In this document: in pieces, positions 10,948 to 55,546 of the stretch
Layout: each line of letters begins with the position of its first letter
Position numbering within the stretch: the first letter of the stretch is position 1
DNA from: Desulfococcaceae bacterium
GTDB taxonomy: Bacteria; Desulfobacterota; Desulfobacteria; Desulfobacterales; Desulfococcaceae
NCBI GenBank assembly: GCA_046541515.1
Contig: JBKHDD010000005.1
Location: 647-64,646 of the forward strand
Length of the DNA: 64,000 bases
Direction: 5' to 3'
Notes under the pieces: generated by a model
Seen by the model: the letters and a program-made list of their open reading frames with translations, nothing else
Told to the model about the DNA's origin: nothing
The model's database searches: none
Translations under genes and position numbers: made by a program

Positions 10948-10956
10948 GACGGGCCC

Positions 10957-28352: not shown

Positions 28353-28518
28353 CGCGGCTTGGGTCATCTTGGGCTCCTGGTTCTTCTGGAACTCGGGCGC
28401 GTTCGCCACGGCAAGCCGGATTTGGGAACCGGTGCCGGAGCCTGGCGGAATGGCCATGTTTGGCGGCTGGCTACTTGGCCTCGGCATTCTGGCGCGAAAA
28501 CTCCTTCGCCATCGGTAA
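28336..28518 (+). CDS. minimal PEP-CTERM-type secreted peptide candidate (about 60 aa)
   Basis: TTG at 28336 lies 8 nt after GGAGGA. The signal-peptide-like KLKAIGFAAWVILGSWFFWNSGAFA is followed by VPEPGGMAMFGGWLLGLGILARKLLRHR (PEP motif, hydrophobic helix, basic tail). Third codon positions are G/C-biased. An alternative ATG at 28216 would give 100 aa. Confidence 0.45.
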   Translation: MKAIGFAAWVILGSWFFWNSGAFATASRIWEPVPEPGGMAMFGGWLLGLGILARKLLRHR

Positions 28519-28893
28519 ACGTCGCGTCGCCATATTTTCCGTTTATGGGACGTTGCTCGGCCACGGATTCCCAGTGGAATTCCAATCCGTTCCACTTGGA
28601 CGCCGTGCCGCTTCCTCCCTCCCGCCTCCCCACCGGAACTTTTCGCCGCCCCGCCCCTTTCCGTTCACCCATCCGTTCGCCCCTTTTTATGTTCTTCGTC
28701 TCTCGATCTTTCCACTTTTCCACGGTTTTCCGGTCGATCCCGCTTTTTCCAAAAGGAACCGCGGCGGAAGGGGGCGCCATCCCGGAAAACCGGTTTGGAT
28801 GCCGTTTGACATTCCGCCGAGAGCCTTTCTATTTTTTATGCTCGGAACCGTGACCAACCGATGTTCGCGTGGAAAATCTAAAAAGGAAAAAAC

Positions 28894-30048: not shown

Positions 30049-30090
30049 TCCGGTTTCCAACGCGGCGGACGATTCGGATCGACGGCGGGA

Positions 30091-32028
30091 TCAGGCGCCG
30101 CCGGGAAAGGGCTGGACCGACCGGGGCCGCGCGACCGGCGTCCGACTTTCCGCTTCCGGGACGGATTCCCGGTTCGTCTTTCGGGGCGGCTTTGCGCCGT
30201 TTCGGCTTCCTTCCACCAGCGCCGTCAGCTCTCCGGCGATTTTCGCCATCCGGCGGGATTGGCCGTTGACCGTCTCCGACACCCCGGCCGATTCCTGGGC
30301 CTTGGCCGCGTTCAGCTGCACCACCGCGTCGATTTCCACCGCCGCCCGCCGAAGCTGTTCGACGCCCTTGGCCTGTTCCCGGGAGGCTTCGGCCACCTCT
30401 TCCATCAAATTTCCCATGTCCCGGACTTTTTGGGACACGCCGCCAAATCGACTCCGAACGGTTTCCGACCGCTCGGCCATGGTTTCCAGCCGTCGCATGT
30501 TTTCGTCCACCAGGGCGGAGGTGCTCCGGGCGGCCTCTCCCGCGCGCCCCGCCAGCTTGCGGACCTCCTCGGCCACCACCGAAAAGCCGGCGCCGGCCTC
30601 TCCGGCCCGGGCCGCCTCCACCGCGGCGTTCAGGGACAGCAGATTGGTCTGAAAGGCGATTTCATCGATGGTTTTTACAATTTGGGAGGTCCGTAGGCCC
30701 ACGTCCAGGGCGCTTTGGGCGACGGCGTTCAGCTCCCCGATGGATTCGTCCGCGCCGTCCACCACTTCGTAAACCTCCCCCTTGAGCGCATTTCCGGCGC
30801 CGGCGTTTTTCGCGTTTTGACTGGCGATGGCGGAAATCTCCTCCAGGGAAGACGCGGTCTGCTGGATGGTGACGGCCTGACGGGCCGCGCCGTCGGCGAT
30901 GTCTTCGTTGGTCTCCGACATTTTGGCGGCGGCCCGCTGGACCTGCTGGGAGCTCTCGTGCAGCTCGCCCACCGCCCGCCGGATGGAAACGGCGACCCGG
31001 GCGGCGAAAAACCGGACGGCGATCGCCGAAAGCAGAAGGAAAACCGCCATCGCCCCCCAATTGAAATTCAGGACGTCGGAAAGCACGGTTCGGAATTCGT
31101 CCGCGTTTTGGGTCGCCGCCACGCTCCAGCCTTGGCTTTTCACCGGGGCGAAGGCGGCCACCCGCTCCGCGTCTCGGAACCGGTAGGTCGCCAAGCCGCT
31201 TTCCGACGCCAACATCCGATCGGCGAGTTCCTCCAGGCCGGGCTCTTCCCGAATGTTGAGGCGAAGCTGAAAATCGGCTTCGGGATGGGCGATCATCCCG
31301 CCGTTTTTATCGGTCATGAAGGAATATCCGGTTTTCCCAACCCGGGTATTGGTCACAAGGGCCGCGATTTCGGAAAGACGGAGATGAAGGCCGACGAAGC
31401 CGGCGAATTCTCCCCGTTTGTCGGGAATCGGCGAAAATACGGGAAGCACCGGTTCTTTGGTCAACTCCGAATGGACGGGATTTCCGATGAAAGGGGCGCC
31501 GACGTCCCGCAATTGCCGGAAGGCGTCCGTCTCCGCCATTTCCAGGCCGATGGGACGCGCCCCGACGTTGGCGACGTAGTTGCTTCGAAAATCGGGGGCG
31601 TCGGCGATTTTTTCCCGGACGAAAGGCGTTTCTCCGCTTTCGGTGGCCCCCGCGAAAACCGTTCCCCGTTTATCGCCCAAAAATATGAGATCATACGCGC
31701 CGCCAAGCCGCTTCAGCGTATCCAACAGCCGATCGTTGAGCCGGGCCAGTTCCATTTCGCCCATGGCGCCGTCGGCATAAAAGCGAATGTCCATGCCGTC
31801 GAAGCTTTGATAATTGGCCGCCAGGCTGTCGGCGATCCGGACCTGTTCGTCGAGCAGCAGCTCCACGGATCGGGCGAGACTTGCCGCCGTCTGGGACGCC
31901 TGGTTCGCGGCGTAGGTTTCCAAGGCCCGGGATACCCGGAAGGTGAAAAGCAACGCCATCGTGAGCATGGGCGCGGCCACCAGCAACACCCCGCCGGAAA
32001 TCAGTTTGAATTTTAAACTGGCTTGCAT
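30091..32028 (-). CDS. methyl-accepting chemotaxis protein with double-Cache-like periplasmic sensor
   Basis: ATG at 32028 is preceded by GGAGG. TM1 is [22 protein letters not shown]. The Cache-like region includes ..[36 protein letters not shown]... TM2 follows, then the signalling domain [38 protein letters not shown]. The ORF-track start at 32181 was trimmed. Confidence 0.9.
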
Positions 32029-32528
32029 CGATCCTCCTTGGCCGTCCCCGCGGCGACGGGGCGGCATTTGCGAACGGCTCGGGTTTTCATCCTGGGAAAC
32101 GATCGTCTTGGGGCGCCAACCCGCGTTCAAGATTTGCCTGCGGATTTCAATCGTTTCCAGACAAAATGGAAAACGACGCATGAAACCCCTACGCTTTTTG
32201 CTAACACCGGGAAGTTAAGGGCGTGTTAAGGCGCGAAAAATTACCGAAAAAAATTGTGCGGAATTTGGGAAAAATGGATTGAACAAGGCGGGCGCGATCG
32301 CCATTCCCAAATGAGAATATAAAATAAAACAAAGGGGCTACGGAAGAGGCGCGGCGGAATCGGGGGCCGGTTTTTTTCGGAATATCCAAGAAGATGAACC
32401 CTTTTTTCCGGGTTGCAAAACTTTTGAATTTTCTGTAAAAAAGCGTTCCAGTTTGACGGGGGGCGGGTCGCCGCGGGGTCTTTTTCAGGCGTCCCGAATT
32501 TCTGAAACGCCAAGGGGAAGGGAAAGCG

Positions 32529-42425: not shown

Positions 42426-42561
42426 CTTCGGTTCAACGCCTTTTCAACCGGAAGGTGGACTGGGCCATCCGACTTCTTCCCGAAACGGTTGCGGTTTTCG
42501 CGATCTCCCAGACGGACCGGCGGAAATTTGCGAAAGCCTCCGAATTTGGGCGCCCCGCCGA

Positions 42562-44709
42562 TCAGGAAGGAATCGCCCTTTCCCTGGGCAACGCCACCGC
42601 AAACGTGCTCCCCTCCCCCGGGCGGCTTTCCAGGAAAATTTCTCCGCCGTGGAGGTGGACCAGGCGGCGGACCAGGGCGAGACCGAGGCCGGTGCCGTCC
42701 TGGGAGCGGGCGAAGCCGCCGTCCACCTGGGTGAACGGCTCGAAAATTTGCTCCAGGGCCTCGGGTTCGATCCCGATGCCCGTATCCCTCACCCGAAAAC
42801 AGACCCGCCCCGGTTCGGTTCGGTCTTCCACCGTCAGCGTGACCATTCCGCCTTCGGGCGTGAATTTGACCGCGTTGGAAAGCAGGTTGACCAGAATCTG
42901 CTTCAATCGGCGCTGATCGGCGAGAATCGTCTCCGTCCGGCCGTTGAAGCGGGAGTAAAGCGTGATCCCTTTCTTCTCCGCCGGGGCGCGGACCATCCGG
43001 AGGCTGCTTTCGCAGATGTCCGGCACCGAAACCGGCGTCACCTCCAACTCCAGCTTTCCCGCTTCGATTTTGGAAATGTCAAGGATGTCGTTGATCAGGG
43101 CCAGGAGATGATTGCCGGCGCGCTCAATGATTTCCAGGCTGTGCAACTGCTTTTGGTTCAGGGGGCCGTAGACTTGATCCTGCAAAGCCTCCGTCATGCC
43201 CAGGACCGCCGTCAACGGAGTCCGAAGTTCGTGGCTCATGTTGGCCAGGAATTCGTCTTTGAGGCGAGCCGCCTTGGCCAGCTCCAGGTTGGCCGCCTCC
43301 AGCTCCCGGGTCCGATCTCCCACGCGGTCCGCCAGGAGGGTCCGTTCCGCCTCCAAGGCGGAACGCATCCGTTGCCGGGCCAAAAAGGAGCCGACCATTT
43401 CGGCGGCGGTTTTGAGCGTCATCACCTCTCCCGCGTCCCATCGCCGGAAATGCGCGCCATCTTCCAGGCCCAAAAAGCCGTAGAGGTCATGCCCCGTCCG
43501 GACCGGGAGCAAAAGGACCGAGCGGGCTTTCCGGCCGGAAAAAAACCAGCGCTCCTCGGGGGGAAATCCACTGACGGCCCCCAGCACGGGGCGATCTTCG
43601 GCGAAGGCCGCAAGCCAACGCTGCAGCCCTTCGTTGAAATGAATGGCTTTCTCGGGAGGGGCCGAACAAGCGGTCTCCCCTTCCCCTCTCCGGATTTCGG
43701 CCACCCCGCGGGCCATCGGTTCGCCGGCGCCATCCTTCTGGTTTTCGTAAAGAAATACGTGACTGGCGCCGGAGGCTTCCATCAGGTGCTCCAATCCGGT
43801 TTCGAGGGCTTCGGGCGAATCGGACAGCAAGGCCCGGGAGCAGGCGGAAAGGCCCTGCTCGTATCGCAAACGCTGGTTCAGCGCCAGTTCGTAGGTTTTT
43901 CGCTGGGAAATATCCCGGGCCGAAACAAAAATTCCGCAAACCCGCCCCTCCTCGTCTCGGACGGGCGTTTTCGTAACGCTGACCCACTCGAGACCCCGGG
44001 GGCCAATCACCTGTTGATCCAAGATCAGCGGCTCGCCGGTTTCCAGAACCTTTTGATCTTCTTCCAAGAACACGCGCGCCTGTTCCGGAGGAAAAAAATC
44101 CAAATCGCCTCGGCCCAGAATTCCGGACCGATCCCGCCAGAGAAATTTGCAGAAAGCCGCGTTGGCCGCCCGATAAATGCCGTTCAAATCCTTGACCATC
44201 ACCAGATCGGGCGTCGCCTCAAACATTGCGTACAGCAACTCGTCACGGCCGCGAAAAAAGCTGAAATTCTCTCGATCGGCCAAAGCCGGCGAAACCCTTT
44301 TCGGCGGGGGCGGGTCCGGCTTGGCGGGAAACGTTCCGCCCAGTCGGGCCGCCTTCTGCACGGCGGACCGCAAGTCGGGGGGCTCAAAGGGACGAAACAG
44401 CGGGATGCCCGGTCCGGCGGCCAACCGGCGACAGGCCGCCACATCCGCCGGATGGGTGAGGAATACCAGGGACGGAGATTCCCCCGCCGCGTCCCGAATT
44501 CCATCGGCTTCGGCCGGGTCCGCGGGGCGTGGCCGGTCCAGGTCGACCAACACCACGTCGGGCCGTTCCGGGGCGCGGGGCAAAAGCGTTTGGGCCGCGA
44601 GAATGTCCGCCGCCATACCAACCACCGCGTATCCGGCGTCGTTCAGCATGTTGGCGAGGGCTTCGGCGGGACCGGGATCCCCTCCGACCAGATACACATG
44701 CAGGGTCAT
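42562..44709 (-). CDS. cytoplasmic sensor histidine kinase: atypical receiver-like N-domain, PAS, GAF-like, HisKA, HATPase
   Basis: N-domain: VYLVGGD..VVLVDLDRP..VFLTHP..LFRPF (receiver-like, with a non-canonical acidic pair and Arg in place of the conserved Lys). PAS: LLYAMFEATPDLVMVKDLNG..ISQRK. H-box FLANMSHELRTPLTAV. N/G boxes NLLSNAVKF..DTGIGI..GTGLGLALV. Confidence 0.88.
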   Translation of the reverse strand: MTLHVYLVGGDPGPAEALANMLNDAGYAVVGMAADILAAQTLLPRAPERPDVVLVDLDRPRPADPAEADGIRDAAGESPSLVFLTHPADVAACRRLAAGPGIPLFRPFEPPDLRSAVQKAARLGGTFPAKPDPPPPKRVSPALADRENFSFFRGRDELLYAMFEATPDLVMVKDLNGIYRAANAAFCKFLWRDRSGILGRGDLDFFPPEQARVFLEEDQKVLETGEPLILDQQVIGPRGLEWVSVTKTPVRDEEGRVCGIFVSARDISQRKTYELALNQRLRYEQGLSACSRALLSDSPEALETGLEHLMEASGASHVFLYENQKDGAGEPMARGVAEIRRGEGETACSAPPEKAIHFNEGLQRWLAAFAEDRPVLGAVSGFPPEERWFFSGRKARSVLLLPVRTGHDLYGFLGLEDGAHFRRWDAGEVMTLKTAAEMVGSFLARQRMRSALEAERTLLADRVGDRTRELEAANLELAKAARLKDEFLANMSHELRTPLTAVLGMTEALQDQVYGPLNQKQLHSLEIIERAGNHLLALINDILDISKIEAGKLELEVTPVSVPDICESSLRMVRAPAEKKGITLYSRFNGRTETILADQRRLKQILVNLLSNAVKFTPEGGMVTLTVEDRTEPGRVCFRVRDTGIGIEPEALEQIFEPFTQVDGGFARSQDGTGLGLALVRRLVHLHGGEIFLESRPGEGSTFAVALPRERAIPS

Positions 44710-46172
44710 TCTTCTTCCCGACAGTTCCGGGTTGGGATCACCATTTCCACCACCAGCCCCTCCCGGTCGGCGCGATTGGCGGCCCGACAGGTCCCGCCCG
44801 CCTCCCAGACGACCACCGCGACCATGGAAAGCCCCAACCCCATTCCGGGCACCTCTCCGGTCTGGTCCTTGTCCCCCTGATAGTAGGGATACCAGATTCT
44901 TCCCAGCTGAAGCGGAGAAAGCCGGATTCCGTCGTCGGTTACGCGGGTTCGAATTCCCTCGGGGGTCGAATCCATCTGAATTCCCACGGCAGGGCGTTTT
45001 TCGGGATGAAATTTCCAGGCGTTTTCCAGCAATTCCAACAAAAGATCCTGGAAGAGCGGGCGGGAAAGGGGGATTTCAACCGATGCCAGGTCCGCCGGAA
45101 ACGCCACCGTCGGCGGTTCGATTCCCAGCGAAGCGGCCGCCTCTTTGGCCAGCCCGCCAATTTCCCCCACCGTGCAACGCTCGGCCCAGCACAATCCGGC
45201 GGAAGTTGTTTGAATATAACGGAAAATATCCAAAATTTCCCTCTGGAGCCGATGCGCGCTGTCGGCCGCCATTTGCGTGAACTCCGCTCGTTCCGAAGGC
45301 TCCATCATTTCCGACTCCGCGACCAGCAGATCCAGGGCGCCGGTCAGCCCGTTGAGCGGGGTCTTGAGCTTGTGGCTGATCTGGCGGTGAAGAGACCAGG
45401 TCATTTTTCGTCCGTCCACCTGGCTCGTCACGTCCCGCAACCGGACCAGGAAGGGTTCCGCCTCCCGGCCGGAAGCGGGCATCAGATCCACCTGGAGCCA
45501 CAGCGCGTTGGCGGCCAGGCAGTCCGGGCGAACCAGATACCGGGGCGCCTCGGCGGGTTCCGGCCAGTTTTCCCAAAGGGATTCGGGGCGTCGCCGGTAC
45601 TCCGGAAGGGCCAGTTCGGGAAACGGCGTCTCCGGCAAGGATTCACCCGACGCGTTCTCCGGCAAGGAGAGAAACCGGCGGGCCTGTGGATTGGCGTACA
45701 GGATCCGTCGTTCCGGCGAAAGGGCCAAAAAGCCGTCGTCGTCCTGCTCCACCACCCATTGGAAGCGACTGCGTTCGTAGACGAGTCGCCGATACCGGTT
45801 GAGGCGCAACAGCGTTCGGACCTGGGCGCGGAGTTCTCCCCGGTTGAAAGGCTTGGACAAAAAATTGTCGGCGCCGGCCTCGATGCCATCCAGACGAGAT
45901 TGGGCGTCGTCCAGGGCCGTGACCATTATGATCGGGATTTCGGAGGTCTTCGGGTCCTCGCGAAGGTTTCGGCACACTTCCTGACCGTTCATGCCCGGCA
46001 TCATCACGTCCAGCAGGATCAGGTCCGGCGGGGTTTCCCGCGCCATTTCCAGGGCCTGGGACCCGTTTTCGGCGAAGCGCAGGCGATAGCTTTCCGAATG
46101 CAGCAGGGCCGCCAGGGTGTCCCGCGCGGATTCGGTGTCGTCAACAATCAGAATGTCCGGCTCGCTGGCCAT
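44706..46172 (-). CDS. receiver-sensor histidine kinase fusion (REC, PAS-like linker, HisKA-like, HATPase)
   Basis: REC: DILIVDDTESARD..LILLDVMMPGMNG..IMVTAL..FLSKPF. H-box-like QISHKLKTPLNGL. N box LLENAWKF and G2 GMGLGLSMV. Its stop overlaps the next start (ATGA at 44706-44709). Confidence 0.85.
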   Translation of the reverse strand: MASEPDILIVDDTESARDTLAALLHSESYRLRFAENGSQALEMARETPPDLILLDVMMPGMNGQEVCRNLREDPKTSEIPIIMVTALDDAQSRLDGIEAGADNFLSKPFNRGELRAQVRTLLRLNRYRRLVYERSRFQWVVEQDDDGFLALSPERRILYANPQARRFLSLPENASGESLPETPFPELALPEYRRRPESLWENWPEPAEAPRYLVRPDCLAANALWLQVDLMPASGREAEPFLVRLRDVTSQVDGRKMTWSLHRQISHKLKTPLNGLTGALDLLVAESEMMEPSERAEFTQMAADSAHRLQREILDIFRYIQTTSAGLCWAERCTVGEIGGLAKEAAASLGIEPPTVAFPADLASVEIPLSRPLFQDLLLELLENAWKFHPEKRPAVGIQMDSTPEGIRTRVTDDGIRLSPLQLGRIWYPYYQGDKDQTGEVPGMGLGLSMVAVVVWEAGGTCRAANRADREGLVVEMVIPTRNCREEE

Positions 46173-47736
46173 GAGAATTCTCCGGAGAAAGGGCGAGAAA
46201 GTTTTCCACCGTTTTAATCAGGGTTCGAAGTCGGACGGGCTTGCTCATGTAGGCGTTGGCGCCGGCCGAAAGGCACCGTTCCCGGTCTCCGGCCATGGCC
46301 AGCGCCGTAATGGCGATCACGGGAACAAAGCGCAATTGGGGGTCGGCGCGAAGATTCCGAATGGCTTCCAGGCCGTCCATATCCGGCATTTGCACATCCA
46401 TTAACATCAGGTCCGGCGGGTTTTGACGAGCGCCCTCCAGGGCTTCGCGACCGGTGAGGGCGGTCCGGACGGCGTAGCCCCGGGATCGGACATAATCGGC
46501 CATGACGGCGGCGCTTTCCGGATTATCCTCGGCGAGGAGAATGGTTGCTTTGGAAGGCGCTCCATCCGCCGCTTCGGCCGGTTTGCGGGAAACGATCTCC
46601 GAGGAATCCTTGGTCTGGCGGTCGGGGAGAGAAAGGGTAAAGCGGTTTCCGGATTCGAGGTGGCATTCCACCGTTATCTGGCCGCCCAACAAGGCGGACA
46701 ATCGCCATGCCATGGGAAACGAAAGGTCGATGTCGCCGGGCGTCTGGATGTCCGGAAAGGCGTCGCCGGAAAGGAAACGCTCCAAGGTTTTCTCGGAGAT
46801 GGCGATCCCCTCCCGGGACAGGGAAAGGCGGAAACGGTTTTCCGCCCGCACGGCGTCCAGGAGGATGGGCCGATCGGGCGCGCCGTCCTTGGCGTATCGG
46901 GCCAATTCCATCAGAATCCGGACCGCCATTTCCGGGTCGGTCCAGATCGTTTCCCCGGGAAGAACATCCCGGATCAACGGGGGCGGCTCCGCCGGGTATT
47001 CCGCGGCGAGACGTTCCCGGCAGGTCCGCAACAATTCGGAAACGGCCACCGGCTCCTTTTGAGCCGTCCGCCGTCCATTTTGAATATGCGCCAGTTCCAG
47101 CAAATCCTCCGAAAACCGAAGCAGGCGACCGATTCTTTCCCGGGACAAGGATGGATCGCCCCCGGCGCTTCCTTCCGATTCCCCGGATTCATCGTGGATG
47201 AGGTTCAGCTCCGCCGTCAGCCGGCGGGCCAGACCCAGAAAGAACCGGTCCATGCTTTTCAACCGCCGACTCAGCGCCTCCTTTTCCGCGTGCAACCGGC
47301 GGGTCCGCGCAGCGACTTTCCGCGACTTTTCGGACCGTTCCCGCCCCAACTCACGGCTTGCGGCCACTCGTTCGGAAGCGCGTTTCACGGTGACCAGAAG
47401 CTGGTCGATTTCACAAGGCTTGCGCAGGTAGCCGTAGGCCCCCAAATTGACCGCCTCGACGGCCGAATCCCGGGAGGCGTGACCGGCAAGAACGATGCAC
47501 TGGGTGCCCGGAGAGAACGTCCGAAGATAACGGATGATTTCCAGCCCGTCGATTTGCGGCGTCCGAAGGTCGATCAGGCCGACGGCGAAGGCGCGCCGAG
47601 CCAGAAGCGGCTTCACCCGCTCCGGCGCTCCCGCGATCGTCACCTTGAATCCCTCTGCTTTCAAAAAAGAGGCCAGGGCTTCCCGGAACAATTCGTCGTC
47701 GTCGACGATCAATACCGATTGAGGATCAATTTCCAT
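46141..47736 (-). CDS. REC - degenerate (pseudo) histidine-kinase core - REC protein
   Basis: ATG at 47736. REC1: VLIVDDDELFRE..GLIDLRTPQIDG..LRKP. The middle has HK-like length and order, but the H-box position reads FFLGLARRLTAEL, the N-box position reads ILMELARYAKDG, and the G boxes are degenerate. REC2: ILLAEDNPESAA..LMLMDVQMPDMDG..AITAL..YMSKP. The first ~490 codons of track ORF 46141..49209 are out-of-frame read-through and were trimmed. Confidence 0.8.
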   Translation of the reverse strand: MEIDPQSVLIVDDDELFREALASFLKAEGFKVTIAGAPERVKPLLARRAFAVGLIDLRTPQIDGLEIIRYLRTFSPGTQCIVLAGHASRDSAVEAVNLGAYGYLRKPCEIDQLLVTVKRASERVAASRELGRERSEKSRKVAARTRRLHAEKEALSRRLKSMDRFFLGLARRLTAELNLIHDESGESEGSAGGDPSLSRERIGRLLRFSEDLLELAHIQNGRRTAQKEPVAVSELLRTCRERLAAEYPAEPPPLIRDVLPGETIWTDPEMAVRILMELARYAKDGAPDRPILLDAVRAENRFRLSLSREGIAISEKTLERFLSGDAFPDIQTPGDIDLSFPMAWRLSALLGGQITVECHLESGNRFTLSLPDRQTKDSSEIVSRKPAEAADGAPSKATILLAEDNPESAAVMADYVRSRGYAVRTALTGREALEGARQNPPDLMLMDVQMPDMDGLEAIRNLRADPQLRFVPVIAITALAMAGDRERCLSAGANAYMSKPVRLRTLIKTVENFLALSPENSHGQRAGHSDC

Positions 47737-47786
47737 TTGTTTCCATGAATCCCGCCGATACGGTTCGAGGGACCTCGCCATTCCCT

Positions 47787-48899
47787 TTACAACTGGATGG
47801 TAAACACGGAACCCCGGGGTTCGTTGGCCTCCGCGAAAATGCGTCCGCCATGGGCTTCCACCACCATTTTGCAAAAAACCAATCCCAGTCCGTATTGCGG
47901 GATGCCCCGTCGTTTCATGTCGGCCACTTCGTATTTTTCGAAAACCCGTTCCCGGCGCCCCTCCGGAATGCCGGGGCCTTCGTCCATCACCCGGACGACG
48001 AGGGCCGGAAATGGACCGGCCTCCTCCCCTGCGACCTCCGCCGGGGAAGGATACCGGGCCCGGATGGTGATCTGCCCCTCGTCCGGAGAAAATTTGATGG
48101 CGTTGCCGATCAGGTTGTCGAAAACCCGGTGCATGAGATTGGGGTCCAACAAAAGGGTCCGGGACTCGTCGGGAAGGTCGTCCACCACCGACACGTCCCG
48201 TCCAATGGCCATTGCGCGGCCGTGGCCCACCGCCGTTCGCAGCAGGTCGGCCACGTCGACGGGTTCCCGCTGGAGGATCGGGTTGCCCGCTTCCATCTTT
48301 GCCAGCATGAGCATGTCGGTCAGGTAATTGTTTAAGCGACCGCCCTGCTCCCGAATTTTTTCGAGACCCCGGTCCGCCTCGGGGGAAAGCCGCCCGGAAA
48401 GTTTCAGAGAAAGAAATTCGCTCATTCCCATGATGACGGAAACGGGGCTCTTCATGTCGTGGACGATCATGTGGGCCAACTCTTCCCGAAGCCGAAGATT
48501 GTCCAGCAACTGGTCGTAAAGCCGCTTGATGCGGAGCATGGAACGGGCCCGCACCCGAAGTTCGCTTCCGCGAACCGGCTTGGAAAGAAATTCGTCGGCC
48601 CCGGCCTGAAACCCGCTCTCCAAGTCCCGGCGACTTTCCAGGGCGGTGACCAGAATGACGGGAATGGGCGAGGTTTCGGGGTTTCCCTTCAGGGTCCGGC
48701 ACACCTCGAATCCGTCCATGCCCGGCATCATCACGTCCAGCAAAATCAGGTCCGGGGCCTGGGCCGCCACCTGTTCCAGGGCTTCGGGACCGTTTCGGGC
48801 GAATCGGAGGCGAAAGGGCTCGGCGGCAAGGAGCGCTTCGAACGTGCTGCGGGCGCCGGGATCGTCGTCCACGACCAGCACGTCGGCGGTTTGGTTCAT
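47787..48899 (-). CDS. receiver-histidine kinase fusion (REC-HisKA-HATPase), cytoplasmic
   Basis: ATG at 48899. REC: VLVVDDDPGARS..LILLDVMMPGMDG..ILVTAL..FLSKPV. H-box MIVHDMKSPVSVI. N/G boxes DNLIGNAIKF..DEGPGIP..GLGLVFCK. Confidence 0.9.
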   Translation of the reverse strand: MNQTADVLVVDDDPGARSTFEALLAAEPFRLRFARNGPEALEQVAAQAPDLILLDVMMPGMDGFEVCRTLKGNPETSPIPVILVTALESRRDLESGFQAGADEFLSKPVRGSELRVRARSMLRIKRLYDQLLDNLRLREELAHMIVHDMKSPVSVIMGMSEFLSLKLSGRLSPEADRGLEKIREQGGRLNNYLTDMLMLAKMEAGNPILQREPVDVADLLRTAVGHGRAMAIGRDVSVVDDLPDESRTLLLDPNLMHRVFDNLIGNAIKFSPDEGQITIRARYPSPAEVAGEEAGPFPALVVRVMDEGPGIPEGRRERVFEKYEVADMKRRGIPQYGLGLVFCKMVVEAHGGRIFAEANEPRGSVFTIQL

Positions 48900-49045
48900 G
48901 GCGGAATCCTTTCCGGAAAGGGCGCGACGAGGCGTCAACGGATTTTCGGATTGTGATCGCGGGGCGCGGGACGGCCGCTCGTCGGCCGAGGGGGGCACGG
49001 CGTCGAGGCGGAATCGGGGACGAAGGGCGCCCGGGGATATCGGAT

Positions 49046-49786
49046 TCAATTTTCCGGCGTTTCCAGCAAGGCCCGGGCCTTTCCGACGCTGAAGCGGACG
49101 GGAATGTCCCCCGCTTCCGCGAAGCCTCGCAGGGCTTTCGCCCGTTCCGGCGTGGCGGCCGCGGCGATGGAAATGCCGGCCTCCCGGCATCGATCGCGCA
49201 GAGCGGCAACCAGTTCCACCACGGGGATGTTGATCGCCTCCGTTCCGCTCAAATCGACGATCAGCGCGCGGTGTCCATCGGCCCGGATCCGCTCCACCTC
49301 GGGGCCGATGCCCGGCAACAGCTCGGTCAGCGTGGCCCGGTCCACGGAACGGGGCAGGGTCACGATGATGAGGCCCCCGTCCGCGGCAAAATATTTTCGG
49401 GCGGGATTTCGCCGCGTCGTCAGCGGGACCATCTTGCCGACCTGGGCCAGCAAGGCCTCCCGGTCGAACGGCTTCAAAATATAATAGTCGGCCCCTTCCC
49501 GAATGATGTCCAGCACCCGCTCCCGGCTGGCCTCCGCCGTCAGCATGACGACGGGAATCGATTTCAGGACCGGGTCTATCTTGAGATGGCGCAATGTCTC
49601 CAGGCCGTCCATCACCGGCATGGCCACGTCCAGCAGAATCAGATCCGGCCGTTCGTTCCGGGCCGTTTCCAGACCCATGGCGCCGTTTTCCGCCTCCAGG
49701 ATTCGCACGTCGAACGGTTTCAGAGCCCGCCCCACCAGCGTCCGGATCATTTTGCTGTCGTCGACCGTTAAAATCTTCGCGCCCAT
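49046..49786 (-). CDS. receiver-STAS (anti-sigma-antagonist-like) fusion protein
   Basis: REC: KILTVDDSKMIRT..LILLDVAMPVMDG..VMLTAE..YILKPF. The C-terminal ~110 aa (..GGLIIVTLPRSVDRATLTELL..ALIVDLSGTEAINIPVVELVAALRDRCREAGISIAAA..) has the STAS/SpoIIAA layout but no obvious DSSG phospho-serine motif. Confidence 0.8.
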   Translation of the reverse strand: MGAKILTVDDSKMIRTLVGRALKPFDVRILEAENGAMGLETARNERPDLILLDVAMPVMDGLETLRHLKIDPVLKSIPVVMLTAEASRERVLDIIREGADYYILKPFDREALLAQVGKMVPLTTRRNPARKYFAADGGLIIVTLPRSVDRATLTELLPGIGPEVERIRADGHRALIVDLSGTEAINIPVVELVAALRDRCREAGISIAAAATPERAKALRGFAEAGDIPVRFSVGKARALLETPEN

Positions 49787-49845
49787 CGCGCCTTTCCTTC
49801 CTCGGGCGCCGAGGTCCGGGCCCGCCGGCCGGCCACGACCGTCCG

Positions 49846-50859
49846 CTATTGCAAATTGTAGCGTTTGATTTTTTCCACCAGGGTGGTGCGGTTCAGCCGC
49901 AAAAGGTCCGCGGCCTGCTTTTTCACCCAGCGAGTCCGTTGCAACGACTGCAGGATCAAGGATTTTTCAAATTCGCCGACCGCGGTGGTCAGGCAGATGC
50001 CCTCGTCGGAAAGCCGGACGGCGGGCGAAAACGGGGCCGCCTCGGCGTTGCGAAGGGTGGGGGGGAGGTCATCGGCGCCAATTTCTCCGGCGTCCTTGAG
50101 CACCACCAGCCGTTCCATCAGGTTTTTCAACTCCCGCACGTTCCCCGGCCAAGTGTGGCGGTTCAAAATCTCCCGGGCTTCCGCGGAGATGCCGATAACG
50201 GACGCCTGGTTTTTGCGATTGAAATGGTCCAGGAAAAAATCGGCCAACCGGTCGATGTCTCCGGTGCGGTCCCGCAGGGCGGGCGTATCCAGGGGGATGA
50301 CGTAGAGACGGTAAAACAGGTCCTCCCGAAAGCGACCCTCTCGCACCTCTTCCGCCAGATTTTTGTGGGTCGCGGCAATAATCCGCACGTCCACGGAAAT
50401 CGTTCGGACCCCGCCCACCGGTTCGAAGGCCCGCTCTTCGAGCACCTTGAGCAGTTTGACCTGAAGCTCGGGGCTCATATCCCCGATTTCGTCCAAAAAA
50501 ACGGTGCCGCCGTCGGCCTGTTCAAACTTCCCCATTTTGGGATGGGTGGCCCCGGTGAAGGCGCCCCGAACGTGGCCGAACAGTTCGCTTTCCAGCAGAC
50601 TTTCGGGAATCGCCCCGCAGTTGATCCCCACGAAGGGACGATCCGCTCGGGGGGAGCGGTCGTGGATGGCCCGGGCAACCATGCCTTTGCCGGTGCCGCT
50701 TTCTCCGGAAATCAGAACGGTGCTGTCGCTTCGGCTCAACTTTCGGATCAGCCCGAACAGCTCCCGCATGGGGGGGCTGGCCCCGATCATTTCATTCAGG
50801 CCCGGCGGTCTTTGGAGCTCCAAAGGCGCATCTGCCCCCGGAATCGGTTGGGGAATCAC
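49846..50859 (-). CDS. sigma54-dependent transcriptional activator (AAA+ and Fis-type HTH) lacking any N-terminal regulatory domain
   Basis: GTG at 50859 lies 5 nt after AAGGAGG. Only ~25 residues precede [22 protein letters not shown] (Walker A). GAFTGA motif ([10 protein letters not shown]), Walker [10 protein letters not shown] and C-terminal [24 protein letters not shown] are present. The track start at 50958 reads through a repeat region. Confidence 0.85.
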
Positions 50860-50908
50860 GGAAACCTCCTTGCAATCGCATGGGAAAGTGGCAAAACGCC
50901 CTTCATTT

Positions 50909-50938
50909 TTGCAAAATACAAACTTGCAAAATACAAAC
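50909..50938. repeat. exact tandem duplication of the 15-mer TTGCAAAATACAAAC
   Basis: Read directly from the sequence at 50909-50923 and 50924-50938. A third near-copy TTGCAAAATACAAT lies at 51047-51060. More TTTGCA/TGCAAA motifs occur at 51127-51158. Confidence 0.9.
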
Positions 50939-50941
50939 CAA
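50924..50941 (-). promoter_or_regulatory. candidate sigma54 (-24/-12) promoter for the activator/STAS/kinase cassette
   Basis: The minus strand reads TTGGTTTGTATTTTGCAA, with GG and GC separated by exactly 10 nt and a TTGCA -12 element. It lies ~65 nt upstream of the GTG at 50859. Confidence 0.45.
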
Positions 50942-51136
50942 CGCGAAAAGCTCCCCAAAAAAAATATTTGCCCGATTTTTCAGATGGTTTCACTCCAGCC
51001 GATCCTTGGCGCGCCTTCGCGGGGGAGGAAAATTTCCCGCAAACTTTTGCAAAATACAATGAATTTGGAAGCCCAAGGGCTAATTGCTTGAATTAAATAT
51101 GGAATTTTGTGAAAAAAATCACTGCGTTTTGCAAAC

Positions 51137-52513
51137 TTAATTTGCATTCTGCAAAACCTCGTCGGCGAGACCAAAACTTTTGATCTTTCGGTAGAGGGTG
51201 GTGATATTGATTCCAAGCAATTTGGCGGCGCGGGCCTTGTTGCCTCCGGTGTGTCGAAGGGCGCGGCGAATCATTCGAATTTCGCTTTCCCGAAGGGTCA
51301 GCACCTGACCGCGGGAAGATTCGCCGTCCCCCGCTTCTCCCCGCTCCCGAATTCGGGCGGGCAAATCCTCCGGGCGAATCACGCTGGAACGGCTCAAGGC
51401 CAACGCCCGCTCCACCGCGTTTTCCAGCTCCCGCACGTTGCCGGGCCAGTGATAGGCCAGCAACAGGCGCATGGCCTCGGAGGACACCTCCCCGAAATCC
51501 TTGGCCCCGCCGGCGTAGCGGTTCGCGAAATGCCGAACCAGCGGAGAAATGTCCTCCCGCCGCTCCCGCAGGGGCGGCATTCGGACGGAGACCACGTTGA
51601 GCCGGTAAAACAGGTCCTTGCGAAGAATCCCCTGGGCCAATAGCGTTTCCGGCGTTCGGTTGGTGGCGGCCACCACCCGAACATCCACCGGCAGTTCCCG
51701 GGTGCCGCCCACCGGTCGAATCCGGCGCTCCTGAAGAACCCGAAGCAGCTTGACCTGCAACGGGGGCGAGATTTCCGAAATTTCGTCCAAAAAAAGAGTG
51801 CCGCCGGCCGCGGCGCGAAACAGGCCGTCGTGCTCGCGGACGGCGCCGGTAAAGGCGCCTTTGACGTGGCCAAAGAGTTCGCTTTCCAACAGGCCGTCCA
51901 CCATGGCCCCGCAGTTCACCGGCACGAAGGGTCCGTCGGACCGGGCGCTGTTGCGATGAATGGTCCGGGCCGCCACCTCCTTTCCGGTGCCGCTTTCCCC
52001 CTGGATCAGCACCGTGGGGCTTTTCTCCCGCATCCGCTCGATGCGGTCGTAAATTCGCCGCATGACGGGGCTGACCCCCACCAGCTCCCCGTACCCGGAC
52101 GGATCTTCGAGGCGGGAGCGAAGCCGGCGATTTTCGCGCTGCAACGCCTTCTTCTCGAACACCCGGACGGCCAGCAGTTTTAGCCGGTCGAAATTCAGCG
52201 GCTTCTGCAGGTAGTCGTAGGCGCCCAGCTTCATGGCCTCGATGGCGGAGTCCACGTCGGCGTAGCCGGTCAGGATGATCACTTCCGTGTCCGGGCGGGT
52301 CTCCTTGACGGCGCTCAACAACTCCAGCCCGCCAATTTCCGGCATCAGCAGGTCGGTGAAGACCAGGTCGAACCGCTCTTCCCGGATTCGCTCCAGGGCC
52401 TTCAAGCCGCTGGAAACCGACGCAACCTGGCATTCCAGCAGGGAAAGGTGTTTCACGACGACGTCCAGCATTTCCCGGTCGTCGTCCACGCACAGCACGC
52501 GGTGTTCACTCAT
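51137..52513 (-). CDS. NtrC-family sigma54-dependent response regulator (REC-AAA+-HTH)
   Basis: ATG at 52513 overlaps the motB stop by 8 nt. REC: VLCVDDDREMLD..LVFTDLLMPEIGG..IILTGY..YLQKP. AAA+: IQGESGTGKE, GHVKGAFTGA, LFLDEISE. HTH: GNKARAAKLLGINITTLYRKIKSFGL. Confidence 0.92.
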   Translation of the reverse strand: MSEHRVLCVDDDREMLDVVVKHLSLLECQVASVSSGLKALERIREERFDLVFTDLLMPEIGGLELLSAVKETRPDTEVIILTGYADVDSAIEAMKLGAYDYLQKPLNFDRLKLLAVRVFEKKALQRENRRLRSRLEDPSGYGELVGVSPVMRRIYDRIERMREKSPTVLIQGESGTGKEVAARTIHRNSARSDGPFVPVNCGAMVDGLLESELFGHVKGAFTGAVREHDGLFRAAAGGTLFLDEISEISPPLQVKLLRVLQERRIRPVGGTRELPVDVRVVAATNRTPETLLAQGILRKDLFYRLNVVSVRMPPLRERREDISPLVRHFANRYAGGAKDFGEVSSEAMRLLLAYHWPGNVRELENAVERALALSRSSVIRPEDLPARIRERGEAGDGESSRGQVLTLRESEIRMIRRALRHTGGNKARAAKLLGINITTLYRKIKSFGLADEVLQNAN

Positions 52514-53273
52514 CCGTGGGCGCTCCTCCGTCGGAACGAGAAAGGGCCTGAAACGAAGAGGACGACAGGGTGATCTCCACGCGACGGTTTTTCCGCCGGC
52601 CTTCGGCGGTGTCGTTGGGTTCCAGGGGCCGGTACTCGCCATACCCCATCGTCCCGATCCGTTCCGGGGGCACGCCGGCCTCGCCGATCAGGAATTCCGC
52701 CACCGAGGCGGCCCGGGCCATGGAAAGCACCCGGTTTGACCCGTAGAGGCCTCCGGAAACCGGCACGTTGTCGGTATGGCCGGCGATGATGATCTCCCCT
52801 TGGGTGTCCTTGAGCATTTCGCCGATGGACCGCAGCAGCGGGGCCATTTGCGGCCGGATCACCGCCTGGCCGGAATCGAAGGTGGTTTCCCCCATCAGCC
52901 GAATGATCACCTGATCGGCGTCCTGGTCCACCCGGACCAGATTTCCCACGTCGCTCAGGTGCTTTTCCACCTCCGCCCGAATCTCTCGGATCAGCGCCTC
53001 CCGCATCCGGGTGGCGATCACGTCCTGGTCGAAATCCTTTGCGATGATTTTCCGCCCCTTGGGCATCTCCATCACGCGGGTTTTGCGCTGCACGCCGAAG
53101 GCCTCGGCCATGGAGCCCGACATCAGTTTGTACTTCTGCCGGTCCATTTCGGAAAAGGAAAGCATCAGAACGAAAAAACAGAGGAGCAGGCTCATCAGAT
53201 CCCCGAAGGTGACCACCCATTCGGGCGCCCCCTCCTCGACGATCTCCTTGCGTTCCGGCGGTTTCCGGGCCAT
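52506..53273 (-). CDS. motB: flagellar motor stator protein MotB (OmpA-like C-terminal domain)
   Basis: Contains APEWVVTFGDLMSLLLCFFVLMLSFS (plug/TM with conserved Asp) and the C-terminal IIAGHTDNVP..SNRVLSMARAASVAEFL..GYGEYRPL..RRKNRRVEI. Confidence 0.92.
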   Translation of the reverse strand: MARKPPERKEIVEEGAPEWVVTFGDLMSLLLCFFVLMLSFSEMDRQKYKLMSGSMAEAFGVQRKTRVMEMPKGRKIIAKDFDQDVIATRMREALIREIRAEVEKHLSDVGNLVRVDQDADQVIIRLMGETTFDSGQAVIRPQMAPLLRSIGEMLKDTQGEIIIAGHTDNVPVSGGLYGSNRVLSMARAASVAEFLIGEAGVPPERIGTMGYGEYRPLEPNDTAEGRRKNRRVEITLSSSSFQALSRSDGGAPTDE

Positions 53274-53276: not shown

Positions 53277-54059
53277 TCAGGCGCCTTCCGGGGCGGGGGC
53301 GGCCGGGGCGAAGCGGCGGCGGTCCCGGGGGGACAGGTAGATTTTCAGCGATTCCTCCAGCACCATGGGAGAAACCCCCTGGTTCATGGCCAGCGCCGAC
53401 TCCAGAATGATGTTTTTGTTGTCCTGCTCCTGCTCGCTGCGAAGCGCCAGCTTGTCGGCGATGGGATTGCAGATCAGGTTGGCCAGCAGGGCGCCGTACA
53501 GGGTGGTCAGCAAGGCCACCGCCATGGCCGGCCCGATGGAGGCGGGGTCTTCCATGTTGGCCAGCATCTGAACCAGTCCGATCAGCGTTCCGATCATCCC
53601 GAAGGCCGGGCCCGAGGACCCCATGCCCTTGAAGATTCGCTGGCCCACCGAATGGCGCTGGACCATCAGCCGGATATCTTTTTCAAGCATGTCCTCGATG
53701 AGTCCCTCGTCGAAGCCGTCGGACAGGTATCGCAGGGCCTTGTCCGCGAAGGGATCGCTCACCTCCTGGTTTTCCAGGGCGATGAGTCCCTCCTTTTTGG
53801 CGATTTTGGCCAGCTCCAACATCCGCTGAATGACCGCCTCGGGCGGATCAATTTTATACAAAAAGGCTTTCATGGCCACTTTGAGGGAATTGATCACGTC
53901 CGACATGGAAAACTTGATGAAGCAGGTGGCCAGCGTGCCGCCCAGCACGATGAGAATGCCCGGAATATTGATGAACAATAGCAGGCTTCCGCCCAACAAA
54001 ACGGCGGAGATCACCAGGGCGGCGCCTCCGACCAGTCCGATTACGGTTGCCAGATCCAT
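53277..54059 (-). CDS. motA: flagellar motor stator protein MotA
   Basis: N-terminus MDLATVIGLVGGAALVISAVLLGG.., then ..GPAFGMIGTLIGLVQML..AVALLTTLYGALLANLICNPIADKL (MotA/TolQ/ExbB channel signature). Ends 3 nt before motB. Confidence 0.92.
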   Translation of the reverse strand: MDLATVIGLVGGAALVISAVLLGGSLLLFINIPGILIVLGGTLATCFIKFSMSDVINSLKVAMKAFLYKIDPPEAVIQRMLELAKIAKKEGLIALENQEVSDPFADKALRYLSDGFDEGLIEDMLEKDIRLMVQRHSVGQRIFKGMGSSGPAFGMIGTLIGLVQMLANMEDPASIGPAMAVALLTTLYGALLANLICNPIADKLALRSEQEQDNKNIILESALAMNQGVSPMVLEESLKIYLSPRDRRRFAPAAPAPEGA

Positions 54060-54060: not shown

Positions 54061-55233
54061 TTATCCCCTTATGGAATCTCTGTAAACAAAGACCCGGTCG
54101 GTCACCCCGGCCAGTTCCCGGTTCTTTTTGAGTTTTTCGATGCCGTGGGCGTCCAGCCGGCTGCCGCCGGGCAACAGAAGGGCCCCGGTGGGACGGCGAA
54201 CCTCCCGGGCCAGCCGCATGCCCGGCGCCAGCTCCTCCAGCGGAAGCTCCACGTCCACCCGCCGGGCCTCGGCCGCCTCCAGTTCGCCGGCGTGGGCGAT
54301 CAGGATATCCGTCAGCGCCGGCTCCAGTTGATAGCCGCGCATCCGCCGGAGTTGATCCGGCGTTTCGCCGATCCGGAAGCCGCCGCGATGAAGCAGATTG
54401 TCGAACACCGACGCGGCGTTGATGATTCGGGCGCCCAGGGGCGCCGCGTCCCCGACCAGTCCGTCGGGAAAGCCGCGGCCGTTGTACTGTTCGTGATGGG
54501 ACCGCACCAGGTCGGCGGCCGGGGCGAGAAACTCGATCTCCCGCAGCAGAACCTCCCCAAGCACGGGATGGGAACGGTAGAGCTTGACTTCGTCCCCGGT
54601 CATTTCGGTTCGACTTTTGAAAAGGATTTCCTGGGGGAGGCCGATCATGCCAATGTCGTGGAGCAGGGCGGCCGTTTCCAGTTCGGGAAGGTCTTCGAAT
54701 TTCACGCCGGGAAGACGCTCCGCCAGGAGAAGCGAAAGCTCCGCAACGCGGCGGGAATGGCCGCCCAGGGCATTGTCGAAGGTTTCGATCAGTTGATTGA
54801 ACATCCGGATGGTCTGGTAATAATTGGCGCGAATCCGCTCGTATCGTCGGGTCAGCTCGCTTTCCAAGCCCACGATCCGCTCGCCGATTTCCACCCGCGC
54901 CTCGAATTCGTCGTGGCGAACCGGCTTGGTGATGAAGTCGTCGATGCCGCCTTCCAGGCCCCGCACGACGTCCTGGGGGCGGTTCATTCCGCTGACGATG
55001 ATAAAATAGGTATAGCGGGAGTGGCCCGCCCCGCGAATTCGCTGGCATAGCTCAATCCCGCCAATGTCCGGCATCATCCAGTCCGACACCACCATGGGCG
55101 GCTTCCGGTCCATCCAGGTCGCCCAAGCTTTTCGTCCGTCGATCACCGGGAGCGGCTCGTGCCCCATGTGCCGGATGAACATTTCCAGCATTTCCAGATG
55201 ATCGCGATCATCTTCCGCAACCAAAATCTGCAT
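54061..55233 (-). CDS. receiver-HD-GYP c-di-GMP phosphodiesterase (RpfG-like) with an extra C-terminal domain
   Basis: REC: ILVAEDDRDHLE..MVVSDWMMPDIGG..FIIVSG..FITKPV. HD-GYP: GGHSRRVAEL..AALLHDIGMIG..RSHHEQYNGRGFPDGL (GFP variant of GYP). About 90 further residues follow (..LEELAPGMRLAREVRRPTGALLLPGGSRLDAHGIEKL..). Ends 1 nt before motA. Confidence 0.88.
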   Translation of the reverse strand: MQILVAEDDRDHLEMLEMFIRHMGHEPLPVIDGRKAWATWMDRKPPMVVSDWMMPDIGGIELCQRIRGAGHSRYTYFIIVSGMNRPQDVVRGLEGGIDDFITKPVRHDEFEARVEIGERIVGLESELTRRYERIRANYYQTIRMFNQLIETFDNALGGHSRRVAELSLLLAERLPGVKFEDLPELETAALLHDIGMIGLPQEILFKSRTEMTGDEVKLYRSHPVLGEVLLREIEFLAPAADLVRSHHEQYNGRGFPDGLVGDAAPLGARIINAASVFDNLLHRGGFRIGETPDQLRRMRGYQLEPALTDILIAHAGELEAAEARRVDVELPLEELAPGMRLAREVRRPTGALLLPGGSRLDAHGIEKLKKNRELAGVTDRVFVYRDSIRG

Positions 55234-55330: not shown

Positions 55331-55346
55331 TGCAATATCCGTTCCC
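55331..55346 (-). promoter_or_regulatory. candidate sigma54 promoter for the HD-GYP-motAB-ntrC operon
   Basis: The minus strand reads GGGAACGGATATTGCA against consensus TGGCACG-N4-TTGCA. GG/GC spacing is exact and AC, G and TTGCA match. It lies ~95 nt upstream of the ATG at 55233. Confidence 0.5.
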
Positions 55347-55530: not shown

Positions 55531-55546
55531 CGGTATGGCTTTTGCA
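55531..55546 (+). promoter_or_regulatory. candidate sigma54 promoter for the flgB operon
   Basis: The plus strand reads CGGTATGGCTTTTGCA, with exact GG-N10-GC spacing and a TTGCA -12 element. It is ~280 nt upstream of the flgB ATG, which implies a long leader. Confidence 0.4.

Follow-up and report, generated by a model that had tools for sequence, protein, structure and literature searches.

The 64,000-nucleotide (nt) stretch of contig JBKHDD010000005.1 analysed here, called the window below, comes from the metagenome-assembled genome of an uncultured sulfate reducer of the Desulfococcaceae and carries, within positions 42562-50859, a cassette of six minus-strand genes. These genes, A to F, encode a sigma-54 activator without a regulatory domain (hereafter domain-less), a receiver (REC) domain fused to a STAS domain, and four REC-linked proteins of the histidine kinase type. 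Gene frames were picked by GC content at third codon positions (GC3) and by start-site context, in a window of about 62% GC with many overlapping spurious open reading frames (ORFs). In Pfam searches, gene A (49846-50859) matches Sigma54_activat (PF00158; 1.5e-71), AAA_lid_14 and HTH_8 (3e-13). It is followed by gene B (49046-49786), the REC-STAS gene, with Response_reg at 1e-26 and STAS_2 at merely 0.009, and by gene C (47787-48899), which encodes a REC-HisKA-HATPase protein, i.e., a receiver followed by dimerization and histidine phosphotransfer (DHp) and catalytic and ATP-binding (CA) domains. Gene D (46141-47736) encodes a pseudokinase in which a marginal HATPase match (3.5e-4) lies between two receivers, gene E (44706-46172) a REC-PAS_4-HisKA-HATPase protein, and gene F (42562-44709) a protein with a marginal REC match (0.0014) ahead of PAS, GAF, HisKA and HATPase domains. 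The genes are separated by 59, 146 and 50 nt, while D and E overlap by 32 nt and E and F through an ATGA.

These results agree with most of what an initial annotation of the same DNA had claimed for the cassette. The domain architectures were reproduced almost exactly by Pfam, with gene A made of AAA+, lid and helix-turn-helix (HTH) domains alone; the tight, operon-like spacing, including both overlaps, follows from the gene coordinates; and there are indeed four kinase cores, of which one is degenerate, H, N and G boxes being present in C, E and F and absent from D. No membrane segment was found in the six proteins either, their highest Kyte-Doolittle score over 19 residues being at most 1.45, versus at least 2.35 for MotA, MotB and FliF. 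The number of receivers had to be corrected, since alignment with CheY gives six receiver or receiver-like domains in the six genes instead of the seven announced, and the claimed lack of a DNA-binding response regulator holds inside the six genes but not beyond them, as an NtrC-type REC-AAA-HTH gene lies directly upstream. A scan for intrinsic terminators within the cassette found none above chance, which is compatible with a single transcript without proving one. None of the seven proteins compared with NCBIfam reached the cut-off of an equivalog.

Gene A starts at a GTG preceded by an AAGGAGG ribosome-binding site, and its AAA+ domain begins at residue 24, with 23 residues ahead of it; NCBI places the start at an ATG at 50790 (314 amino acids, aa), and the protein lacks an N-terminal domain whichever start is used. 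The Walker A (GESGTGK), Walker B (VFLDEI) and GAFTGA motifs are all present and, with the Sigma54_activat match, identify an enhancer-binding protein (EBP); having no N-terminal regulatory domain and a retained C-terminal HTH, it belongs with the group V, or PspF/HrpRS-type, domain-less EBPs. A more precise identification as a PspF equivalog was rejected (261 bits, with an NCBIfam cut-off of 443). The closest PDB sequences are ZraR, NifA, FleQ and FlrA, and relatives of about 350 aa, with 61-68% identity, occur across the Desulfobacterales; the Joint Genome Institute gives many of them the name "sigma-54 specific flagellar transcriptional regulator A". The N-terminal, receiver-like FleQ domain of FlrA and FleQ was not found by Pfam in gene A, which, judged by sequence, is FlrA/FleQ-like by its AAA+ domain and context only and falls outside strict FlrA/FleQ membership on its N-terminal side. 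An activator of this type has been reported in Desulfovibrio vulgaris, where DVU2894 is a FlrA/FleQ-like flagellar EBP without N-terminal domain that is predicted to control flagella (Kazakov et al., PMC4641369). Gene A may likewise control flagellar class II genes, a prediction made from context, namely from the flagellar locus, from sigma-54 elements in front of flgB and of the HD-GYP operon, and by analogy with the co-expression precedent of DVU2894.

The gene B protein, whose sequence is identical to that of a protein annotated in a Desulfococcaceae metagenome-assembled genome, combines a canonical receiver (D9/D10, D53, T83 and K105) with a domain spanning about residues 128-242. Taken alone, gene B remains below the Pfam STAS cut-off (16.6 to 18.3 bits), but 18 of the 19 members of its family match PF01740 (best 4.5e-9), and a profile of the gene B-type STAS domain retrieves 3t6o, a STAS protein, and RsbS from the PDB sequences. 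An AlphaFold2 model of the full protein, computed from an alignment of full-length relatives, has a predicted local distance difference test (pLDDT) score of 91.9, and its C-terminal half follows the beta-beta-alpha-beta-alpha-beta-alpha-alpha order of STAS domains. Foldseek searches with this full-length model returned receivers only; the STAS matches emerged with the isolated C-terminal domain (model pLDDT 89.5), which resembles RsbS, RsfB (an anti-sigma-F antagonist), TM1442, SpoIIAA and stressosome STAS domains with template modelling (TM) scores of 0.65-0.75. At the level of the family and of the predicted structure, a STAS fold is hence confirmed for the C-terminal domain of gene B. The serine that is phosphorylated in RsbV and SpoIIAA is absent from it: the aligned position, set by alignment to 3t6o and by manual alignment to SpoIIAA, is occupied by Ile in gene B (NIPVV) and by Val in its family (NVSLI).

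This STAS subtype is rare, with 191 clusters retrieved by profile search among 1.84 billion representatives, and the corresponding proteins are typically receiver-first and 245-275 or 370-390 aa long. A receiver also stands at the start of all 10 longer, multidomain relatives that were scanned, whose architectures include REC-REC-STAS, REC-HD_5-STAS, REC-Hpt-...-STAS, REC-...-VWA and multi-STAS arrangements. One relative, P0303, is a REC-HD_5-...-STAS fusion that hints at a link of this type of STAS domain with HD-GYP signalling. The canonical receiver residues, the adjacent kinase gene and the occurrence of a GAF-kinase and of the CheX phosphatase in typical loci (see below) argue that gene B encodes a genuine phospho-acceptor under kinase/phosphatase control.

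The distribution of this protein was followed by scanning species-representative genomes with a REC-STAS alignment, which gave 80 loci whose ORFs were annotated by BLAST with window- and locus-derived queries. Once loci from context look-ups are included, 65 contain a full-length REC-STAS gene, and 45 of these are informative in that they extend over at least 2.5 kb on both flanks. A same-strand gene for a domain-less EBP is found within 2.5 kb in 29 of the 45 informative loci, and within 10 kb in 33; CheX is encoded within 300 nt of REC-STAS in 36, and 33 have flagellar structural genes no more than 10 kb away. Conversely, REC-STAS genes were found beside three of three homologues of the short (domain-less) EBP, picked solely for their long contigs. 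In Desulfobacterales, the typical order is flaF-flbT-flagellin (reverse strand), CheY-like receiver, HDOD, GAF-kinase, CheX, REC-STAS, short EBP, PAS-kinase, REC-EBP and flgBC-fliEF. Loci of the window type (L001, L002, L003, L034 and L088) have the two genes of the pair in the opposite order, no CheX, and motAB on the upstream side, but the pair is still together.

The initial annotation had made its reading depend on synteny of the six genes in other genomes. Synteny does exist: a ten-gene array, from the HD-GYP gene to gene F, is entire in the metagenome contigs L001 (69-97% identity) and L088 (47-93%), and at least its first seven genes are found in the more distant L002 before the end of the contig. 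Among the loci surveyed, the four kinase genes were not found outside these close relatives (L001, L088 and partly L002), and the EBP/REC-STAS pair is widespread. Since the kinase genes are thus an addition of a narrow clade, the six-gene set is not the conserved unit, which is the EBP/REC-STAS pair, usually accompanied by CheX, HDOD and the GAF-kinase. Among the papers that were searched, there was no description or equivalent of this REC-STAS/short-EBP pairing.

REC-STAS proteins also occur in other surroundings. In the Verrucomicrobial loci L066-L087 (e.g., L067, 686-7386), HDOD, CheX and a REC-REC-STAS protein of about 380 aa, with the same STAS subtype, are encoded ahead of flgBC and of a gene for a sigma-54 activator that contains a receiver, and the trio of HDOD, CheX and REC-STAS is therefore older and wider than the pairing with a domain-less EBP. 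A paralogous group of REC-STAS proteins of about 246 aa (L044, L047, L050, L052, L057 and L064) is in each case followed by a receiver-bearing protein of about 1100 aa; with no CheX, EBP or flagellar genes nearby, this group seems to employ the REC-STAS architecture separately, for a purpose other than flagella.

Alignment with CheY shows that the full acidic pocket, the phospho-accepting Asp, the Thr/Ser and the Lys are all present in the receivers of B, C and E, in the second receiver of D, and in those of the neighbouring NtrC-type and HD-GYP proteins. Gene C, which is always preceded by gene B, is the best-conserved kinase gene of the cassette (89, 79 and 77% identity). Its H box (VHDMKSP), N box and G1 box are conserved in four orthologues, its best NCBIfam match is hybrid_HK_LvrA, under the cut-off, and its canonical receiver followed by intact H, N and G1 boxes would make it a receiver-controlled histidine kinase of the LvrB type (REC-DHp-CA). 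Gene E is a variant of the same architecture with an inserted PAS domain, an SHKLKTP H box and an atypical G1 box (DDGIRL). In gene F, the receiver-like domain has Gly-Gly for the acidic pair and Arg for Lys, and the kinase boxes are canonical throughout. Gene D, whose product would be 15 residues longer if translated from an alternative ATG at 47781, has a first receiver with Ala in place of Thr87 and a canonical second receiver of the hybrid-kinase type. It lacks the phospho-acceptor His, its N, G1 and G2 boxes are degenerate, and the motif scan was empty in the window, in L001 and in L088. Because its orthologues (69% and 46% identity) have equally lost the kinase motifs, gene D is best described as a conserved pseudokinase and not as a decaying gene. 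Pfam detected no Hpt domain in the six proteins or their neighbours, and membership of a multistep His-Asp-His-Asp phosphorelay was rejected on this ground.

Upstream of the cassette, pattern matching identified a sigma-54 -24/-12 element, TGGTTTGTATTTTGCA, at 50925-50940 (minus strand), in line with the sigma-54-type promoter proposed initially. It is conserved in the orthologous intergenic regions as TGGTTTGCCTTTTGCA (L001), TGGTTTGGCTTTTGCA (L002) and TGGTTTGCTATTTGCA (L088), while the flanking sequences diverge. The same holds more broadly: 30 of 35 short-EBP genes from other Desulfobacterales loci have a [TC]GG-N8-TTGC[AT] match within 600 nt upstream, where 0.08 would be expected per 600 nt, the commonest form being TGGCAT-N5-TTGCT. 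A tandem duplication of 15 nt, TTTGTATTTTGCAAG, repeats the -12 region in the window, a difference from L001 and L002. Palindromes of the form TTTTGCAA(AA) are clustered at 50907-51134 in this AT-rich intergenic region of 277 nt and are candidate sites for activator binding; of the 10 matches in the whole window, where 2.4 would be expected, 6 fall in this region. The GTCA-N6-TGAC repeat of the DVU2894 type was not seen in the 277 nt upstream of gene A.

Beyond this region, the cassette adjoins an HD-GYP-motAB-NtrC operon on the minus strand and faces the divergent flagellar genes flgBC-fliEF, as noted initially and supported by the Pfam matches of the neighbours. The upstream operon consists of genes for a REC-HD-GYP protein (54061-55233, minus strand), whose HHEQYNGRGFPDG motif has GFP in place of the canonical GYP, MotA (53277-54059, minus strand), MotB (52506-53273, minus strand) and, as its last gene, the NtrC-type REC-AAA-HTH protein (51137-52642, minus strand). 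The latter probably starts in reality close to 52520, so that it overlaps the motB end; its orthologues in L001 and L088 are 462-466 aa long, and others, with 54-58% identity, adjoin the short EBP in L016, L019, L020, L026, L053 and L054. A second element of the sigma-54 type, GGAACGGATATTGCA (55331-55345, minus strand), lies 98 nt upstream of the REC-HD-GYP gene; the same element recurs at equal distance in L088, and L002 has a similar one. A third, CGGTATGGCTTTTGCA (55531-55546, plus strand), precedes the divergent flgB operon and is identical in L001. With such elements before the cassette, the HD-GYP operon and flgB, all three units of the locus appear to be sigma-54-dependent. On the other side, beyond gene F, the region is closed by a convergent oligopeptide ATP-binding cassette (ABC) transporter. 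In L001 (17629-18291) and L088 (18923-19618), a gene with a PEP-CTERM domain lies between gene F and the transporter; as the corresponding interval of the window, 42426-42561, measures 136 nt only, this gene has been lost or was never gained here.

It can be regarded as secure that the cassette is a flagellar regulatory operon, in which a domain-less activator of the FlrA-like kind is encoded together with a phosphorylatable REC-STAS protein and a lineage-specific set of cytoplasmic kinases including a pseudokinase; a place as a sigma-54-dependent operon in the flagellar gene hierarchy is its most likely interpretation. How domain-less sigma-54 activators are controlled is a standing question, and the 2015 study of the Desulfovibrio regulome offered two answers for the DVU2894 type, a partner protein and a place in a regulatory cascade, without choosing between them (Kazakov et al., PMC4641369). 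We tentatively prefer, without being convinced of it, the view that REC-STAS is phosphorylated under the control of the kinases of the cassette and, through its STAS domain, acts in turn on the co-encoded activator. The PAS-GAF sensor kinase F, the receiver-controlled kinases C and E and the pseudokinase D, flanked by its two receivers, would integrate intracellular signals through PAS and GAF domains and through mutual phosphorylation of N-terminal receivers, and the network would thereby set phosphorylation of REC-STAS at Asp53. The likeliest direct phosphate donor to Asp53 would be gene C, because it always follows gene B and is the best conserved of the kinases, and gene D may serve as a DivL-like reader or scaffold. 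The binding properties of the STAS domain would be changed by phosphorylation of the receiver and not of a serine, and the domain-less activator, by its AAA+ ring, would be its most likely target. In this view REC-STAS is a detachable regulatory domain that would gate sigma-54 transcription of the flagellar operons and, through the sigma-54 promoter of the cassette, of its own operon.

This reading is favoured by the adjacency of the pair, which persists on the same strand through rearrangements, by an activator that has no other regulatory domain while classical STAS partners are absent, and by two precedents, the LvrA-LvrB-LvrC cascade (PMC13269768) and the control in trans of domain-less EBPs as exemplified by PspA/PspF (cited in PMC4641369). 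We infer the phosphotransfer routes and the contact between STAS and EBP, and for the action of STAS on the EBP we do so from gene neighbourhood. A wider version, in which REC-STAS is the detachable, phosphorylation-switched subunit of domain-less FlrA-type activators throughout the Desulfobacterales, with STAS binding the AAA+ ring, is conceivable and should be viewed with more doubt.

Several observations weigh against these proposals. In a Rosetta-stone test, no fusion of the STAS subtype with an AAA+ domain was found among the longer proteins scanned. A short EBP is missing from the surrounding 10 kb in about a quarter of the informative loci, CheX (36 of 45) is a tighter neighbour of REC-STAS than the EBP is, and the Verrucomicrobial relatives are encoded near a receiver-containing EBP instead of a short one. 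The window kinases share 23-28% identity with the GAF- and PAS-kinases of typical loci and are not orthologous to them, so that operon membership alone links them to REC-STAS. On the activator side, the N-terminal 20-40 residues are unconserved across the short-EBP family and no conserved docking motif was found in this tail, which therefore offers no obvious docking peptide. Lastly, the short EBP gene is itself sigma-54-dependent, so its control could be exerted by its own transcription alone, via the upstream NtrC-type activator, with no need for a trans-acting protein.

This last point leads to a purely transcriptional cascade, in which the upstream NtrC-type REC-EBP acts on the sigma-54 promoter of a constitutively active domain-less EBP, the kinases phosphorylate the REC-EBP and/or the REC-HD-GYP protein as is reported of GHK3-GHK4-FgrM in Geobacter, and REC-STAS is a phosphate sink or a side branch. 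Such a scheme corresponds to the participation in a regulatory cascade that Kazakov et al. (PMC4641369) offered as their alternative for domain-less EBPs, and it would account for the sigma-54 promoters found before 30 of the 35 short-EBP genes and for the NtrC-type EBP gene that is directly upstream in the window, L001, L002 and L088 and in the six further loci listed above. We nonetheless consider it unlikely, since many typical loci (e.g., L007, L011, L012, L089 and L090) have no NtrC-type gene between REC-STAS and the short EBP, and since it leaves unexplained why a STAS output domain is kept beside the EBP across rearrangements. The conservation of CheX within 300 nt of REC-STAS suggests another role, that of a fast, CheY-like post-translational effector, reset by CheX, that would act on the motor, the stator or a chemosensory array, the EBP being nearby through the clustering of flagellar genes. 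The position of motAB directly upstream in window-type loci and the CheX/HDOD/REC-STAS trio of Verrucomicrobia, without a short EBP, go in the same direction; but the cassette has no CheX, a sigma-54 promoter precedes what is apparently one transcript for REC-STAS, a transcription factor and kinases, and its same-strand adjacency to the EBP outlasts the inversion of gene order, all of which makes this the least probable of the explanations considered.

The STAS fold, nearest to RsbS, RsfB and SpoIIAA, raises in addition the question of partner switching, which the initial annotation had placed at the endpoint of the kinase network. In its strict form this step was not upheld: the phospho-serine is absent, there is no RsbW-type anti-sigma kinase or PP2C in the cassette or the scanned genes of the window, and neither a HATPase_c_2-only protein nor a SpoIIE/PP2C gene was found in the cassette, these scanned genes or the related loci, so that classical partner switching is unsupported. 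Small proteins encoded between REC-STAS and its neighbours gave no informative Pfam match, FlgM-like or other. REC-STAS could still act as an HsbA-like anti-anti-sigma factor, the STAS domain sequestering an unlinked FlgM-like or RsbW-like anti-sigma factor and thereby controlling sigma-28-dependent late genes, e.g., flagellin. The binding of FlgM by PA3347/HsbA in Pseudomonas provides a precedent (PMC8256260), and genes for flagellin, FlbT and FlaF are neighbours of REC-STAS both in L003 and in typical loci; yet no gene for FlgM, an RsbW-type kinase or PP2C was detected in any inspected locus, and the serine that drives classical switching is missing, which makes this explanation somewhat less credible than the transcriptional cascade. 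Action of the STAS domain on the co-encoded EBP thus stays our preferred, if tentative, reading.

The window contains other features at a distance from the cassette. A second signalling-rich stretch at 14295-32181 encodes three Cache-type methyl-accepting chemotaxis proteins (MCPs), an unusual fusion of REC, NMT1_2 (periplasmic-binding-like) and CheW domains (14295-16241, minus strand), a REC-CheC/CheX-like protein (21216-22319, plus strand), a PAS-GGDEF cyclase (22274-23263, plus strand), a dCache-HAMP-PAS hybrid kinase (25067-27910, minus strand) and a REC-HATPase protein without a HisKA match (28894-30048, plus strand). The gene at 1031-5917 (plus strand) encodes what is apparently an intimin/invasin-like surface protein of 1628 aa, in which Big_1, Big_2, Invasin_D3 and macroglobulin-like domains were recognised; it adjoins a TetR/AcrB/HlyD efflux cluster at 7122-12093.

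To the question of how domain-less activators are controlled, the survey contributes a specific and conserved candidate partner, the REC-linked STAS subtype, with its companions CheX, HDOD and GAF-kinase. Should the proposed action on the activator be correct, it would constitute a new mode of EBP regulation that would explain the control of DVU2894-type activators; it would extend the repertoire of STAS domains from anti-sigma factors to AAA+ activators and add a new variant of the flagellar hierarchy. The four cytoplasmic kinase-type proteins, with their conserved pseudokinase, form in addition a compact natural example of a branched network of receiver-controlled kinases. Strong as the comparative signal is, the key mechanistic step is a proposal, and the six-gene composition is limited to a narrow clade.

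Comparison with known systems starts with the activator itself. Like DVU2894, FlrA and FleQ, gene A lies in a flagellar locus and encodes a sigma-54 activator that joins an AAA+ domain to a Fis-type HTH, its AAA+ domain being close to those of FleQ and FlrA; it differs from FlrA and FleQ by the absence of a FleQ-type N-terminal domain and by a gene that is sigma-54-dependent and not of the sigma-70-dependent class I, and from DVU2894 by its GAFTGA motif, which is GAFTHA in the latter. No REC-STAS partner gene has been reported for any of the three. Since DVU2894 is on record (PMC4641369), a domain-less flagellar EBP as such is already known, and the candidate partner is the new part. The succession of short EBP, PAS-kinase and REC-EBP in typical loci moreover reproduces the order flrA-flrB-flrC of Vibrio. 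With PspF/PspA and HrpR-HrpS/HrpV/HrpG, the likeness lies in an EBP reduced to AAA+ and HTH domains and in its proposed control by a separately encoded protein, but there is no PspA-like or HrpV-like gene here, and the candidate partner is a phosphorylatable REC-STAS protein.

In the HptB-HsbR-HsbA-FlgM system of P. aeruginosa, as would be the case here, two-component signals meet at a STAS protein with an influence on the expression of flagellar genes. Unlike in that system, and in RsbV/RsbW/RsbU, the locus has no Hpt, PP2C or RsbW-type kinase, and its STAS domain is fused to a receiver and lacks the phospho-serine; its presumed target also differs from that of HsbA, being a sigma-54 activator instead of an anti-sigma-28 factor. 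PhyR, which acts with NepR, illustrates how phosphorylation of a receiver can unmask a fused protein-binding domain; the output domain is sigma-like in PhyR and STAS here, so that the likeness is one of logic only. The same is true of DivL of Caulobacter, a kinase scaffold without phospho-acceptor His: gene D keeps such a scaffold and may read the state of a receiver, but it differs in that its ATP-binding domain is degenerate and that it bears two receivers itself. In the GHK3-GHK4-FgrM phosphorelay of Geobacter, which Ueki et al. reportedly described in 2012, a flagellar sigma-54 activator of the Desulfobacterota type is reported to be controlled by a kinase with an N-terminal receiver that is itself phosphorylated by another kinase; FgrM reportedly has its own receiver, and no STAS protein or domain-less EBP is known from that system.

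The Lvr system of Leptospira, which is established experimentally, comes close in architecture: LvrA passes phosphate to LvrB, a receiver-controlled kinase (REC-DHp-CA), which passes it on to LvrC, a receiver with an RsbW-like fold (PMC13269768). The cassette would share with it a cytoplasmic cascade that runs through a receiver-controlled kinase to a receiver fused with a domain of a partner-switching family, and gene C has the architecture of LvrB. The terminal protein has an antagonist (STAS) fold here and an anti-sigma (Bergerat) fold in LvrC, the cassette includes four kinase-type genes, one of them for a pseudokinase, and its context is flagellar and sigma-54-dependent. Taken together, the locus works like a mixture of known systems, in that it joins a sigma-54 hierarchy for flagella to a cascade of receiver-controlled kinases and, possibly, to the trans-control of a domain-less EBP.

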